Sequence record: PZ154895.1
DNA from: a phage
Strand: one strand, 5' to 3'
Length of the DNA: 64,000 nt
Shown here: one piece after another, positions 9,739 through 13,001 of the stretch
How positions within the stretch are numbered: the first letter of the stretch is position 1
Layout of the letters: each line of letters starts with the position of its first letter
The notes under the pieces: model-generated
What the model was told of the DNA's origin: nothing
Seen by the model: the letters and a program-made list of their open reading frames with translations, nothing else
Databases searched by the model: none
Made by a program: the position numbers and the translations under genes

Positions 9739-10028
9739 TAATGATTCTTTATGCGAAAGTATCATCCATTGAAAATGGATATAAATATGATCAAGAAGCA
9801 GCTAAAGCCTTGATTGATGATTATGGCATTTTAACATATTTTGAAGTTGAAAAGGTTTACATTGACCGTTCATCTTCTCAAGTTAAATTAGTGAAGGAAG
9901 ATCGTAAATTTAATACAGTAAATTTTGATTTCTTTATTGAAACAGAAAAAGGTCCTCTTGAATATGATATTTTCAAGAATCCTTTGGGTCTTGAATGCAT
10001 CGTAAATATGTATTATCATAAATGGTAA
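9735..10028 (+). CDS. hypothetical protein
   Basis: 97 aa ORF, ATGA overlap with upstream gene. Confidence 0.5.
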   Translation: MIMILYAKVSSIENGYKYDQEAAKALIDDYGILTYFEVEKVYIDRSSSQVKLVKEDRKFNTVNFDFFIETEKGPLEYDIFKNPLGLECIVNMYYHKW

Positions 10029-10125
10029 ATATGCTTTAAGAATTATTTGTTATTATTAACTCATATCGCACTGATTAATACCCTCTATCATCAAGGGTTC
10101 TTGCTTAAGAGCCTTTGTTAATAAT

Positions 10126-10198
10126 TGGGAATTAGCCAAGTTGGTAAGGCACTGGATTTTGATTCCAGGATGCAAAGGTTCGAGTCCTTTATTCCCAG
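10126..10198 (+). tRNA. tRNA-Gln (anticodon UUG)
   Basis: 7 bp acceptor tgggaat/attccca, anticodon stem ctgga/tccag, loop ttTTGat, T-arm GGTTCGAGTCC. Confidence 0.85.
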
Positions 10199-10199
10199 C

Positions 10200-10286
10200 G
10201 CGAGAATGGTCAAATTGGTAAAGGCACAGCACTTAAAATGCTGCGGAATGATTTCCTTGTGGGTTCGAGTCCCACTTCTCGCACCA
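10200..10286 (+). tRNA. tRNA-Leu (anticodon UAA), long variable arm, encoded CCA
   Basis: acceptor gcgagaa/ttctcgc, anticodon stem cagca/tgctg, loop ctTAAaa, T-arm GGTTCGAGTCC. Confidence 0.85.
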
Positions 10287-10291
10287 AATTT

Positions 10292-10365
<74 letters not shown>

Positions 10366-10369
10366 ATTT

Positions 10370-11020
10370 ATGACTCGTCGTGAGACGCTCAGTTCTTTAT
10401 TAGGGACTGATATGCATTTTTATCTTTATAAAATAACAAATAAAATTAATAATAAAATTTATATTGGTGTGCATTCTACCGAAAATTTAGATGATGGATA
10501 TATGGGTTCTGGTAAATTATTAAAAAGAGCCCAAGACAAGTATGGTATAGAAAATTTTTCTAAAGAAATATTAGAGTATTTTGATGATAAAGAATCTATG
10601 CTTGAAGCCGAGAAAAATATTGTTACAGAAGAGTTTTTAAATAGACCAGATGTGTATAATTTAAAACTTGGCGGTGAAGGTGGATGGGACCACATAAATA
10701 ATTATCCTATGACAGATCAGCAACGCGAATTAATTTCATTGGGTGTTAAAAAGGCACATTCTAACGGAAAATTAAAAGGATGGTCTTCAAATGGATTAAT
10801 GAAGAATGGCTTTGCTGGTAAAACTCATTCTCAAGAAGCTAAACGTAAAATAGCAAAAGCAAACGAAGCAAAAGTTTCTGCGGATGAAAGAAAAAGAAGA
10901 ATAGAAATTTCTAAATTATATGATTTTTCTAAGCGTGGTGAATTATCTAAATATGCTAAGCATATTGGCGTAAGTCATACTCAAGCAAAAAGAATTCTAA
11001 ATCAAATTAACAATATATAA
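10370..11020 (+). CDS. segB: GIY-YIG homing endonuclease (SegB-like) inside the tRNA cluster
   Basis: 216 aa; GIY-YIG motif (FYLYKITN...KIYIGV); embedded between tRNA subclusters as T4 segB is. Confidence 0.8.
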   Translation: MTRRETLSSLLGTDMHFYLYKITNKINNKIYIGVHSTENLDDGYMGSGKLLKRAQDKYGIENFSKEILEYFDDKESMLEAEKNIVTEEFLNRPDVYNLKLGGEGGWDHINNYPMTDQQRELISLGVKKAHSNGKLKGWSSNGLMKNGFAGKTHSQEAKRKIAKANEAKVSADERKRRIEISKLYDFSKRGELSKYAKHIGVSHTQAKRILNQINNI

Positions 11021-11026
11021 ATATTT

Positions 11027-11116
11027 GGAGGCGTGGCAGAGTGGTTTAATGCACCGGTCTTGAAAACCGGCAGTCGCTCCGGCGACTCATAGGTTCAAAT
11101 CCTATCGCCTCCGCCA
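11027..11116 (+). tRNA. tRNA-Ser (anticodon UGA), long variable arm
   Basis: acceptor ggaggcg/cgcctcc, anticodon stem ccggt/accgg, loop ctTGAaa, T-arm GGTTCAAATCC, CCA encoded. Confidence 0.85.
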
Positions 11117-11121
11117 GTTTT

Positions 11122-11197
11122 GCTGATTTAGCTCAGTAGGTAGAGCAACTCACTTGTAATGAGAAGGTCGGCGGTTCGATCCCGTCAATCAGCACCA
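11122..11197 (+). tRNA. tRNA-Thr (anticodon UGU)
   Basis: acceptor gctgatt/aatcagc, D-arm AGCTCAGTAGGTAGAGC, loop ctTGTaa, T-arm GGTTCGATCC. Confidence 0.85.
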
Positions 11198-11198
11198 A

Positions 11199-11273
11199 GG
11201 CCCTGTAGCTGGAAGGTTCAAGCAAGCGACTCATAATCGCCAGATGGTGGTTCAATTCCACCCAGGGCCACCA
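11199..11273 (+). tRNA. tRNA with CAU anticodon (Ile-lysidine type or Met)
   Basis: acceptor ggccctg/cagggcc, loop ctCATaa, T-arm ggtgg-ttcaatt-ccacc. Confidence 0.75.
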
Positions 11274-11282
11274 AATTAATTT

Positions 11283-11369
11283 GGGGAGTTATCCCGTAGA
11301 GGTAGCGGTGTGGACTGTAAATTCATTGTCATTGCGACTCGGGTGGTTCGACTCCATCACTCCCCACCA
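11283..11369 (+). tRNA. tRNA with long variable arm, probable Tyr (anticodon GUA); D-arm non-canonical
   Basis: acceptor ggggagt/actcccc, loop CTGTAAA as in bacterial tRNA-Tyr, T-arm ggtgg-ttcgact-ccatc, CCA encoded. Confidence 0.55.
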
Positions 11370-11373
11370 ATTT

Positions 11374-11448
11374 GGATGTGTAGCTCAATGGCAGAGCGAT
11401 CGCCTGTTAAGCGATTGGTTATAGGTTCGAATCCTATCACGTCCGCCA
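11374..11448 (+). tRNA. tRNA-Asn (anticodon GUU)
   Basis: acceptor ggatgtg/cacgtcc, anticodon stem atcgc/gcgat, loop ctGTTaa, T-arm GGTTCGAATCC. Confidence 0.75.
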
Positions 11449-11452
11449 AATC

Positions 11453-11528
11453 CGAGGCATAGCTCAGAAGGAAGAGCAAGGACCTTCTAAGTCCTAGGTC
11501 GTAGGTTCGATCCCTACTGCCTCGACCA
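11453..11528 (+). tRNA. tRNA-Arg (anticodon UCU)
   Basis: acceptor cgaggca/tgcctcg, D-arm AGCTCAGAAGGAAGAGC, anticodon stem aggac/gtcct, loop ctTCTaa. Confidence 0.85.
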
Positions 11529-11544
11529 ATTAAGTGAGGAAAAT

Positions 11545-11895
11545 ATGAAAGGTAATGTTTATTTAGTAGTTCATGATTTAACATTCTATTTTAATCACAA
11601 TGACACTGTTATTTCTGAACGTGTAATTAATTTGCTTTATCAGCATGCAGATTATGTTTATGTCGAAAACGAATATGGTCATTGGCAATTTCTCAAAAAT
11701 CGTTCATTTGGTTTAGATGGTTACGAATACTTTGAACGTAAAGACCTTTTAGATAAAATTCCGTTATCTACACAATATCAAAATCATAAGTCTTTACATA
11801 AATGCCGTCAAATTCGAAATGCTGAATCTGCGTATGAAGCAATTGATTTATGGCGTAAACGCCGTGAACAGATTGATGCTTTAAAAGAATACTAA
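11545..11895 (+). CDS. hypothetical protein
   Basis: 116 aa ORF directly after tRNA-Arg with SD GAGGAAAAT. Confidence 0.55.
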   Translation: MKGNVYLVVHDLTFYFNHNDTVISERVINLLYQHADYVYVENEYGHWQFLKNRSFGLDGYEYFERKDLLDKIPLSTQYQNHKSLHKCRQIRNAESAYEAIDLWRKRREQIDALKEY

Positions 11896-12234
11896 GAAAC
11901 CGGGTAGCTACCGGTAAGTCGTCGGACTGATGTTCCCTGCGTAAGGACTGGTCTTAATAAATCTTTACGATTTGTTAATATCCCCTTACATCACAGCAGA
12001 AACGGCGCACCGAATTATCGATTCGAGGAAATATCTTTGCCGTAAGCCGAGTAGCGTTTTTGACGGAACGTTCGGATATGGTCGAGATATGGCCTTTTAA
12101 AAATATTGAGTAGCGTCAACTGCTTAATAACCGGGTTCGAATCCCGGCGTTTCGTACAAACACTTGCCTTAGCAGGTGGAACCCCGACAAGGTTGCCGCA
12201 AGGCTTAGCCCCAACCGAAAGGTTGGGGCTTTTT
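11896..12234 (+). ncRNA. candidate stable structured RNA(s), by position analogous to T4 species 1/2 RNAs; ends in terminator
   Basis: 339 nt with no ORF of 60 aa or more; perfect T-arm-like hairpin ccggg-TTCGAAT-cccgg at 12131-12147; palindrome ccgggtagctaccgg at 11899-11915; terminator at 12207-12234. Confidence 0.35.
12207..12234 (+). terminator. rho-independent terminator
   Basis: hairpin agcccca-accgaaaggt-tggggct followed by TTTT. Confidence 0.7.
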
Positions 12235-12284
12235 AGTATAAATATAGTAGTATATTAAATCTACGAATTAAAACAGGAAATAAG

Positions 12285-12758
12285 ATGAAATCATATGCTC
12301 AATTTTTAAATGAAGCGGTGTTAAATGAAGCATCTAGCACCGAAATTCAAGCTGTCGCAAAAGCAGCCATTGCAGCGGGTAAATATTCCTATAAAGATGC
12401 TTCTGACGAATCACGATTCCAATTTGCTCGCGACATGAAAGCAGAAGGATTTACGGGAAATGCGGTTAGTATGGCCTGGAAAAGTTTAGTTGCTACTGGT
12501 GCTGCTTTTGCAAAGGCTTCGGGTAAACCTGCTCCTAAAGCAGATCCTAAAGCTACACAAGAAAAAAATATTGTTAAAGGAATTATCGCTAAGTATGAAG
12601 CTATCCTTAAAGAGCTTTTAGTAATCAAAACCGAAGGCCAAAAGTTAGCCCGTGCCTATAGTTTCAAAGATAATCCACATGTTCACTCTCTTGAGTATGT
12701 TGAAGACATCCAAAAAATTATTAAAGACCGCATTTGGTCTGCTAAACAAATCAAATAA
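12285..12758 (+). CDS. internal protein-like (CTS MKSYAQFLNE-A), Ala/Lys-rich
   Basis: 157 aa; N-terminus resembles T4 internal-protein capsid targeting sequence; followed by terminator. Confidence 0.55.
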   Translation: MKSYAQFLNEAVLNEASSTEIQAVAKAAIAAGKYSYKDASDESRFQFARDMKAEGFTGNAVSMAWKSLVATGAAFAKASGKPAPKADPKATQEKNIVKGIIAKYEAILKELLVIKTEGQKLARAYSFKDNPHVHSLEYVEDIQKIIKDRIWSAKQIK

Positions 12759-12766
12759 CATTCTTA

Positions 12767-12793
12767 ACCCCGACCAAAAGGTTGGGGCTTTTT
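12767..12793 (+). terminator. rho-independent terminator (paralog of 12207 hairpin)
   Basis: ccccgacc-aaaa-ggttgggg followed by CTTTTT. Confidence 0.7.
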
Positions 12794-12914
12794 GGTATCT
12801 AGGCCTTTCCGCGCCTCTCTAGGCATCATTTAGTTTATACACTTTATAATATATTATCCTATCCTTTAATTGCCCATCCCTTCCCTAGAATTCCCTAAAA
12901 CTTTTAAAAAAAAA

Positions 12915-12973
12915 TTTTTCACAAAACTGTTTACATCTCTGTTCTTCCGTGGTACTATACAACTATCAACTAC
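12915..12973 (+). repeat. repeated promoter/leader cassette, copy A1
   Basis: about 58 nt near-identical to 56437-56494 (ttcacaaaactgtttacatc...ggtactatacaactatcaact). Confidence 0.75.
12929..12958 (+). promoter_or_regulatory. early promoter GTTTACA-N17-TACTAT
   Basis: A/T-rich upstream element, -35 12929-12935, -10 12953-12958. Confidence 0.6.
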
Positions 12974-13001
12974 TGATACAGAAAACAACTTGGAGAATGA
13001 A

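Follow-up and report, generated by a model that had tools for sequence, protein, structure and literature searches.

A tRNA-like fold with paired hairpin loops in the stable RNA rnaC, which lies with rnaD at the 3′ end of a T4-like phage tRNA operon

The stretch at positions 11896–12234 belongs to a window of 64,000 nucleotides (nt) of phage DNA (sequence record PZ154895.1). As judged from alignment, it is the 3′ end of a transfer RNA (tRNA) operon and comprises orthologues of the T4 stable RNAs rnaD and rnaC, a trailer hairpin, and an intrinsic terminator. A BLAST search of 11896–12284 against 50,697 phage genomes matches 806 phage records, nearly all of them T-even-type coliphages, and the window is therefore assigned by similarity to a segment of a Tequatrovirus (T4-like coliphage) genome; the top match is Escherichia phage vB_VIPECOOM01 (99.2%). 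Most of the matched records are of Tequatrovirus, and T4-family records with rnaC and rnaD annotated are also among the BLAST matches. In the alignment with T4 (NC_000866), near-identity extends across 11895–12236. The T4 record contains, in order, tRNA-Arg, rnaD (species 2 RNA, 119 nt), rnaC (species 1 RNA, 139 nt), a gap, and gene e.8, and labels rnaD as a 'small, stable RNA; species 2 RNA'. T4 rnaD (71053–71171) maps to 11892–12011, T4 rnaC (70908–71046) maps to 12018–12156, and the T4 trailer and terminator map to 12157–12235. The rnaC of this phage is of equal length to that of T4 and 98.6% identical to it, with 2 changes in 139 nt, both structure-neutral, and is 100% identical to many Tequatrovirus records; rnaD is 87.1% identical to T4 and 96% to RB69. 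The strand relative to the tRNAs and the neighbors of rnaC are also alike in both phages, with rnaD on the 5′ side and the trailer and terminator on the 3′ side. A first-pass annotation, made from the letters alone, had taken the stretch for a possible stable RNA or tRNA-like element, the counterpart of the two T4 stable RNAs. The alignment bears out this outline; however, two RNAs are present instead of a single element, and the acceptor partner in rnaC is 12019–12025, not 12064–12070 (Table 1).

Both elements are already known T4 biology, and the fold, the loop pairing, and the distribution among tRNA clusters are what is added here. The species 1 and 2 RNAs of T4 have been known and sequenced since the 1970s. 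Many deposited T4-like genomes annotate a 'hypothetical protein' coding sequence (CDS) over rnaC/rnaD, or nothing; one record places a 'putative transmembrane protein' CDS across rnaC or rnaD, and NC_054920 labels the rnaC locus 'tRNA-OTHER'. Neither RNA has an Rfam family: a search over 9900–13000 with expectation values (E) up to 10 returns only tRNAs, the isrK and anti-hemB matches at E above 2 being noise, and none is credible on 11896–12234. By shuffle-based folding scores, all three parts of the region fold better than shuffled sequence, with z = −4.55 for 12018–12156 (0 of 200 shuffles as good), z = −2.45 for 11892–12011 (4 of 200), and z = −4.04 for 12157–12240 (0 of 200).

Table 1. 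Positions of the RNA and terminator features at the 3′ end of the tRNA operon (bp, base pairs)
Feature	Position	Strand	Basis or remark
rnaD orthologue (T4 species 2 RNA, ~120 nt)	11892–12011	+	alignment to T4 rnaD
rnaD hairpin P1, ACCGG/CCGGU stem (5 bp), 7-nt loop GUAGCUA	11899–11915	+	outer pairs covary
rnaD long irregular hairpin	11918–12010	+	RNAalifold consensus and pair counts
A/U-rich spacer GAAUUA between rnaD and rnaC	12012–12017	+	comparable spacers in other genera
rnaC orthologue (T4 species 1 RNA)	12018–12159	+	T4 annotation corresponds to 12018–12156; conserved tail U-ACAA reaches 12159
rnaC acceptor stem, 7 positions	12019–12025 (CGAUUCG) with 12148–12154 (CGUUUCG)	+	two conserved U-U mismatches
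rnaC D-stem analogue, 3 bp	12026–12028 (AGG) with 12093–12095 (CCU)	+	invariant; whole D-arm analogue 12026–12095
rnaC long hairpin inside the D-arm analogue (~60 nt)	12031–12090	+	double changes in 19 of 21 pairs
rnaC loop 1, UUGACG, 6-nt apical loop of the long hairpin	12060–12065	+	complementary to loop 2
rnaC candidate G18/G19 analogue, GG	12091–12092	+	position adjoining the D-stem analogue
rnaC A-rich conserved single-stranded linker	12096–12103	+	alignment
rnaC hairpin at the anticodon-arm position	12104–12129	+	10-bp stem, 6-nt loop 2 CGUCAA (12114–12119)
rnaC T-arm, 5-bp stem and T-loop UUCGAAU	12131–12147	+	100% of cells paired
rnaC acceptor 3′ strand and tail	12148–12159	+	CGUUUCG 12148–12154, discriminator-like U 12155, ACAA 12156–12159
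Trailer hairpin CACUUGC-CUUA-GCAGGUG, 7 bp	12161–12178	+	fold
Intrinsic terminator of the tRNA/rnaD/rnaC unit	12207–12235	+	10-bp stem, 7 G-C, GAAA loop, T-run
Second terminator copy, right-hand repeat	12763–12798	+	36-nt direct repeat, 89% identical

The structure of rnaC was written from an alignment and then tested. In the MAFFT alignment (A3) of 15 sequences, 92.4% of the pair cells hold standard pairs, compared with 83.0% in column shuffles, and only 38–46% of the cells pair when the partners are slid by 1–3 columns. Changes on both sides occur in 31 of the 52 pairs, compared with 10.3 in the shuffles, a count that none of 500 shuffles reaches. A covariance model (R1) built from the tested structure was used to align 25 distinct rnaC sequences from approximately 13 phage genera. 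In this larger alignment, which is fitted to R1 and hence biased towards the tested structure, 92.6% of the cells are paired, compared with 38–45% with slid partners, and 34 pairs contain double changes. The model finds exactly one copy in the window, at 12018–12159 (157.5 bits, E = 5e-35), and one copy in each homologous locus; its only other matches are real tRNA genes, at 13–26 bits. Covariation shows in this way that rnaC folds like a tRNA cloverleaf. A conserved, covarying structure exists across genera and discrete transcripts exist in T4; therefore, neither a lack of conserved secondary structure in related phages nor a lack of a discrete transcript speaks against the stable RNA proposed in the first pass.

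The individual arms of rnaC vary among the 25 sequences while retaining their pairing. The third acceptor pair is A-U in 8 sequences and G-C in 17. Positions 4 and 5 of the acceptor stem are U-U in 24 of the 25, and are U-A and C-G in Yersinia phage fHe-Yen9-01, in which all seven acceptor positions are standard pairs. The long hairpin inside the D-arm analogue exists in two unrelated sequence versions, both of which keep the apical loop and the total RNA length (141–145 nt); the version unlike that of T4 is present in Melville, VPA32, PEi20, NM4.3, Ursula, F48, and Marfa. In the 10-bp hairpin at the anticodon-arm position, 9 of the 10 pairs have changed on both sides and 93.6% of the cells are paired, and one unpaired A separates this hairpin from the T-arm. 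The T-arm-like hairpin noticed in the first pass (CCGGG-TTCGAAT-CCCGG) is found where it had been placed, directly abutting the acceptor 3′ strand, and its third pair is U-A, G-C, A-U, or U-G among the sequences. The encoded 3′ tail, U-ACA-A, reads UACAA in most of them, UUCAA in Yen9-01, and UACAG in Ursula. Only in Marfavirus is it UCCAA, a genuine encoded U-CCA-A tail (retrieved loci L023 600–742 and L039 255–397), and the same Marfavirus copies also contain a compensatory loop pair.

The 6-nt loops of the two rnaC hairpins, UUGACG (loop 1) and CGUCAA (loop 2), are exact reverse complements of each other, and 150 of 150 cells pair in the 25 sequences. Independent compensatory changes have given UUGAUG/CAUCAA in Tegunavirus and UUGGCG/CGCCAA in Marfavirus. 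Because these loops pair with each other, no anticodon-like loop is free in rnaC. One coaxial stack of approximately 26 bp could be built from the 10-bp hairpin, the kissing loops (6 bp), and the long hairpin's distal 10 bp; with the remaining 16 bp at the base of that hairpin as the second side and the conserved 10-nt linker as the third, a triangle would close, so that an intramolecular contact is geometrically plausible in such a model. HIV TAR–TAR* and ColE1 RNA I/RNA II are fully paired 6-nt loop–loop ('kissing') complexes, and the rnaC loops are likewise two 6-nt loops complementary over all six bases. Unlike in those complexes, both loops of rnaC would be situated in one tRNA-like molecule. 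TTGACG at 12060 was also considered as a sigma-70 promoter element and rejected, the promoter scan containing nothing there.

Compared with canonical tRNA (RF00005), rnaC likewise possesses an acceptor stem of 7 positions that runs directly into a 5-bp T-arm bearing GGUUCGAAUCC, the same four-way-junction layout and tRNA-cluster location, and a GG where G18/G19 would meet the T-loop. In contrast to canonical tRNA, rnaC is 139–142 nt in length, with a hairpin of approximately 60 nt in the D-loop position; its 'anticodon' stem has 10 bp, and its 6-nt loop is paired to another loop, leaving no free 7-nt loop; the acceptor stem contains two U-U mismatches; and the tail is encoded as ACA, with CCA encoded in Marfavirus only. 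Both ARAGORN and Rfam RF00005 (E up to 10) are blank for tRNAs in 11896–12234. In the CIP9/Winklervirus lineage (retrieved loci L003, L025, L034, and L035), the first G of the GG is replaced by C together with a U-to-G change at T-loop position 2; the combination is GU in 21 sequences and CG in 4, the latter all from this one lineage. Such a co-change is suggestive of an elbow contact, as a hint from a single event in a lineage in which the whole T-loop is altered. The altered T-loop (UGCAUSC) is confined to this lineage, as UGCAUGC, UGCAUCC, or UGCAUUC, with a 6-nt loop in Virsaitis27. The Kanagawavirus phage PEi20 has the canonical T-loop version, unlike CIP9; therefore, rnaC alleles cross genus boundaries.

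Two other classes of tRNA-like RNA resemble rnaC in part. The tRNA-like domain of transfer-messenger RNA (tmRNA) shares the acceptor/T-arm module, lacks a functional anticodon arm, and is likewise part of a larger stable RNA, whereas rnaC contains no tag reading frame, G3:U70 pair, or pseudoknot series and is far smaller; neither ARAGORN in its tmRNA search nor the tmRNA models of Rfam match anything in the region. YrlA and other bacterial Y RNA-like molecules (RF02553) are, like rnaC, stable noncoding and non-decoding RNAs with a tRNA-like elbow formed by a T-arm and a D-arm analogue, but rnaC has no Ro-binding helix. At E up to 10, RF02553 matches neither rnaC nor rnaD; its sole weak match (E = 1.5) falls on a real tRNA. 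Some YrlA/Y RNA-like mimics are phage-encoded, and E. coli is not known to have Rsr/Ro.

The second RNA, rnaD, is built of a 5′ hairpin (P1) and a long irregular hairpin. The upstream open reading frame (ORF) runs into its 5′ end, with the TAA stop codon at 11893–11895. Base 12012 is G here and A in T4, and therefore the 3′ end of rnaD is ...ACCG in this phage and ...ACCA in T4; the conserved core is identical in the two, as it is in all 12 sequences compared, and the apical hairpins are of one type. In P1, the first pair is A-U, G-U, or G-C, the second pair changes from C-G to U-A in phage A73, and the T4 loop is GTCGCTA. The first-pass annotation had reported a perfect palindrome at this place. 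The conserved stem-loop stands, at 11899–11915 (ACCGGGTAGCTACCGGT), but it is not a perfect palindrome, since only GGTAGCTACC (11903–11912) is palindromic; the 15-mer that had been quoted sits at 11900–11914 and has the reverse complement CCGGTAGCTACCCGG, so it is not palindromic either.

In the RNAalifold consensus of 12 sequences, the closing stem of the long hairpin is invariant, with GUCGUCG (11918–11924) pairing with CGGCG-C-AC (12003–12010). The inner helix, U.GUU with AGCA, contains one covarying pair (U-A or A-U), and the apical hairpin (~11938–11993) exists in at least four unrelated sequence versions among the phages. Direct reading of the sequences shows that the Karamvirus and Jiaodavirus versions have other complementary strands in place of this inner helix, for example UUUAAU/AUUAAA in Karamvirus. 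These comparisons show that rnaD consists of a 5′ hairpin and a long irregular hairpin, with a core that is invariant among T4-type sequences and an apical hairpin that is interchangeable. rnaD was also considered as a tRNA-like RNA and rejected, as no acceptor/T-arm arrangement was found and it folds as a 5′ hairpin plus a rod. A hammerhead ribozyme (CUGAUG...GAAAC) was rejected as well: CUGAUG is followed by U or G where the hammerhead core (CUGANGA and GAAA around a three-way junction) has A, there is no Rfam match, and the motif is not kept in the Karamvirus or Jiaodavirus versions.

Upstream of the two RNAs lie nine tRNA genes on the + strand (10126–11528), in the order Gln, Leu, Gly / Ser, Thr, Met, Tyr, Asn, Arg. 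ARAGORN places the last of them, tRNA-Arg(UCU), at 11453–11528, in agreement with the first-pass reading of a tRNA-Arg on the 5′ side of the noncoding stretch. A GIY-YIG/NUMOD3 (segB-like) homing endonuclease gene (10370–11020) divides the cluster in two. The tRNA set of T4 (Gln, Leu, Gly, Pro, Ser, Thr, Ile / Arg) is not identical to that of this phage, and the tRNA-Arg sequence here departs from that of T4. T4 rnaD begins 1 nt after tRNA-Arg, whereas here a 351-nt ORF of 116 amino acids (aa) intervenes (11545–11895; phrog_3355, no Pfam match). The same ORF is also present in RB69 (ORF150c), CAM-21, and AlbertHofmann, and its presence between tRNA-Arg and rnaD is a known variant of the locus, not grounds for exclusion from the rnaD family. 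An TATAAATA box (the T4 late-promoter consensus) is located at 11016–11023, 4 nt 5′ of tRNA-Ser, a position that fits late transcription of the distal tRNAs, rnaD, and rnaC; the octamer is not enriched in the window, with 11 occurrences compared with 10 expected by chance.

On the 3′ side, the trailer is conserved in six phages, T4, RB69, VR25, JE01, IME281, and TH44; the last two have no rnaC, and the trailer is therefore a separate conserved element. Directly 3′ of its hairpin is GGAACCCCGACAAGGUUG, which looks like a decayed copy of a terminator, followed by the real terminator. The whole trailer (12161–12206) is composed of the hairpin CACUUGC/GCAGGUG and GGAACCCCGACAAGGU; ACCCCGACAAGGUUG resembles a decayed terminator copy. 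The terminator scan finds the hairpin at 12207–12230 followed by the T-run, orthologous to the T4 terminator after species I RNA, which agrees with the strong terminator described in the first pass. Its recurrence downstream, also noted there, is real and belongs to a 36-nt direct repeat (12204–12239 and 12763–12798). The two repeats bracket an inserted cassette (12235–12766) with an ORF of 157 aa (12285–12758, phrog_2280) and a late-promoter-like TATAAATA at 12237–12244; counted with its own terminator copy, it forms a self-contained unit (12235–12798). T4 has one terminator and no ORF at this position, and 3′ of the second copy the T4 sequence resumes as it does after the single terminator of T4. 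The cassette 3′ of the terminator, which T4 lacks, looks like a gene gain by recombination at the terminator hairpins.

rnaC was retrieved from Tequatrovirus, Mosigvirus, Gaprivervirus (VR25), Kagamiyamavirus (EcS1), Kanagawavirus (CIP9, PEi20), Moonvirus (Moon, NM4.3), Karamvirus (Pet-CM3-4, VPA32, EcL8g, myPSH1140, CW742), Tegunavirus (fHe-Yen9-01), Gelderlandvirus (Melville), Winklervirus (LC53, Kc304, Virsaitis27), Marfavirus (F48, Marfa), and the unclassified Straboviridae phage Ursula; the set scanned with the model was one without the more distant T4-like phages (those of Aeromonas, Acinetobacter, and Vibrio, and cyanophages). In all groups the RNA is 141–145 nt in length. It is situated in or at the end of a tRNA cluster, on the tRNA strand (+ here), and this is alike in 12 other genera. 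Beyond the T-even group, rnaC as a rule fits exactly into the interval that separates two tRNA genes: tRNA-Trp and tRNA-Gly in Pet-CM3-4, Melville, VPA32, and CW742, tRNA-Met and tRNA-Gly in Moon, and tRNA-Phe and tRNA-Trp in EcS1 and LC53.

In the case of rnaD, Dhakavirus IME281 and Gaprivervirus TH44 carry it without rnaC, and rnaD-like RNAs lie 3′ of tRNA-Arg, tRNA-Met, or tRNA-Asn. A diverged rnaD-like RNA follows tRNA-Asn directly in Karamvirus (RZH, Pet-CM3-4, VPA32) and Jiaodavirus (KP185), and these copies are unannotated or called CDS (retrieved loci L005 ~535–640, L008 ~325–430, L040 ~325–440, and L041 ~330–440). In Karamvirus, the tRNA cluster thus contains rnaC at one place and an rnaD-like RNA at another. 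rnaC and rnaD are thus separate modules travelling with phage tRNA clusters. Furthermore, an rnaD-like RNA with a near-identical core follows tRNA-Met in Escherichia phage A73 of the Vequintavirinae, a member of another phage family (retrieved locus L032 398–495), so that rnaD, as identified by its sequence, is common to Straboviridae and one Vequintavirinae phage. The apical hairpin of the A73 copy is of the Karamvirus type; this copy appears to be a mosaic, which suggests that the RNA module has passed horizontally from one phage family to another. Neither RNA has a BLAST match in 5,426 complete E. coli genomes. A metagenome scan anchored on the rnaC 3′ end gives 8 loci, all Tequatrovirus copies that add almost no diversity, and a scan of IMG/VR viral contigs with the loop-2/T-arm pattern gives 4 matches, all by chance and all in one unrelated coding sequence with no tRNAs near.

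In T4, both RNAs are products of the tRNA-operon precursor, and transcription ends after the species I RNA gene (PMC2330249). Both accumulate late and have no assigned function, and RNAC has been seen on a Northern blot (PMC9697503); PMC3014915 also supports the T4 expression of these RNAs. A discrete stable rnaC RNA of approximately 140 nt in infected cells is shown for T4 only (PMC9697503, PMC2330249). A functional hint exists for rnaD: after adaptation of a T4-like phage to host ECOR34, a single-nucleotide polymorphism (SNP) in rnaD was the only mutation that every line had in common (PMC12685909). The literature searched contains no published function or covariation-based structure for rnaC or rnaD; it does not include the species 1 RNA papers of the 1970s–80s, in which a cloverleaf-like drawing may already have appeared.

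Both RNAs are probably cut from a polycistronic tRNA precursor by host tRNA-processing nucleases; in other genera, tRNA genes adjoin the RNAs base-to-base. In those genera, A/U-rich spacers of 4–5 nt (AAUUA, AACAA, AAUAA) part the CCA of the upstream tRNA from rnaC, and by analogy the spacer at 12012–12017 is a probable endonucleolytic processing site for an inferred nuclease. In the 1980s, the 5′ end of species 1 RNA was reportedly attributed to RNase E-type cleavage of a precursor of species 2 plus species 1. The acceptor/T-arm module would lend rnaC tRNA-like stability and access to tRNA-binding proteins, while the masked loop and the ACA tail would exclude decoding and probably charging. 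rnaC may then act in trans by occupying or titrating a factor that recognizes the tRNA acceptor, T-arm, or elbow. A tRNA processing or modification enzyme and a tRNA-directed host defence nuclease are candidates for such a factor, and the targets of a decoy could include a tRNA-directed anti-phage nuclease or nucleotidyltransferase toxin. A role of rnaC as a non-decoding, non-chargeable tRNA mimic or decoy in trans is the leading candidate function, proposed only tentatively. The same reserve applies to the fuller proposal that rnaC is a dedicated mimic and decoy with its loop capped by a 6-bp kiss with the D-loop hairpin, and that rnaD is a second, independently mobile RNA involved in host-specific adaptation, which we regard as a possibility with clearly less than even chances. 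Taken together as an overall explanation, the identity, the structures, the maturation, and the tRNA-mimic role are judged likely to be the best account of the locus, the mimic role on its own being much less certain.

Several points weigh against this account. The compensatory changes in the rnaC loops come from two lineages only, and the loop–loop pairing could be intermolecular, as in dimerisation. The T-loop is degenerate in CIP9/Winklervirus, so that canonical T-loop recognition is not universally required. The T4-annotated rnaC begins 1 base 5′ of the acceptor stem and ends in ...GUA, and these ends are inconsistent with simple RNase P plus CCA-type maturation. The rnaD fold has little covariation support beyond P1, one inner pair, and the apical hairpin, because its core is invariant among T4-type sequences. 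In the searched literature, no function or binding partner is shown experimentally, and reviews including PMC3014915 and PMC9697503 call the roles unknown.

The alternatives concern either the structure or the mode of action. A single tRNA-like element at 12064–12154, closed by CGGAACG/CGUUUCG and preceded by an unrelated structured spacer, would follow from the possible acceptor-like pairing of 12064–12070 with 12148–12154 noted in the first pass. In the window the two heptamers can indeed form 7 pairs, one of them G-U, and the 3′ strand adjoins the T-arm; however, the pairing fails across the 15 homologues, with 0 compensatory changes and pair 49/138 unpaired in 10 of them. Its 5′ bases are engaged elsewhere, 12064–12065 in the invariant loop UUGACG and 12066–12070 in a stem with covariation at 6 of its 7 pairs, and the other partner, 12019–12025, does covary (A-U, G-C, and all standard in Yen9-01), which makes the single element very improbable. 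Still less credence is given to encoded small proteins or the debris of a decaying tRNA pseudogene. No ORF of at least 60 aa lies inside 11896–12234, as the first pass had stated; the ORFs present are 32–50 aa, the largest being 42 aa (11972–12100) and 50 aa (12106–12258), and several deposited genomes annotate CDS here. All of these ORFs start with TTG, however, and the homologues differ by single-base indels (141–145 nt; 1-nt alignment gaps), their substitutions being pair-preserving doubles with no codon-position pattern. Stable RNAs are detected in T4, and debris would not hold 92% pairing across approximately 13 genera.

If the RNAs acted in cis only, as structured spacers that order processing or shield the 3′ end of the precursor, their products would be functionless. 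Fixed length, loop–loop pairing, a tail, and single-stranded linkers exceed the needs of such a spacer, and in most genera rnaC is located mid-cluster with a tRNA on either side, a position that calls for no 3′ protection. The RNAs are indeed always found within a tRNA cluster or at its end and are transcribed together with the tRNAs, T4-type phages have them at the 3′ end just before the terminator, and no function has been assigned to tRNA-region RNAs in 50 years; but stable RNA products build up late in infection (PMC9697503) and rnaD has acquired a convergent adaptive mutation (PMC12685909), and a purely cis role is considered unlikely. Base-pairing regulation of host or phage mRNAs by small RNAs, through single-stranded segments (12096–12103 in rnaC, the internal loops in rnaD), is similarly improbable. 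PMC9697503 does use the term 'small regulatory RNAs', unpaired AAAAU in rnaC and GACUGA and AAA in rnaD are conserved, and the rnaD SNP bears on host adaptation (PMC12685909). Against this, the best-conserved rnaC loops pair with each other and are not free, and the E. coli genomes contain neither BLAST similarity nor complementarity, short seed matches being outside that search.

The architecture of rnaC, a tRNA-like top half combined with an internally masked 'anticodon' loop, is concrete and testable. Across many genera, phage tRNA clusters carry the two RNAs as conserved passengers that are inherited separately, and the comparative result narrows the functional search to tRNA mimicry, for RNAs that have been without an assigned role for approximately 50 years.

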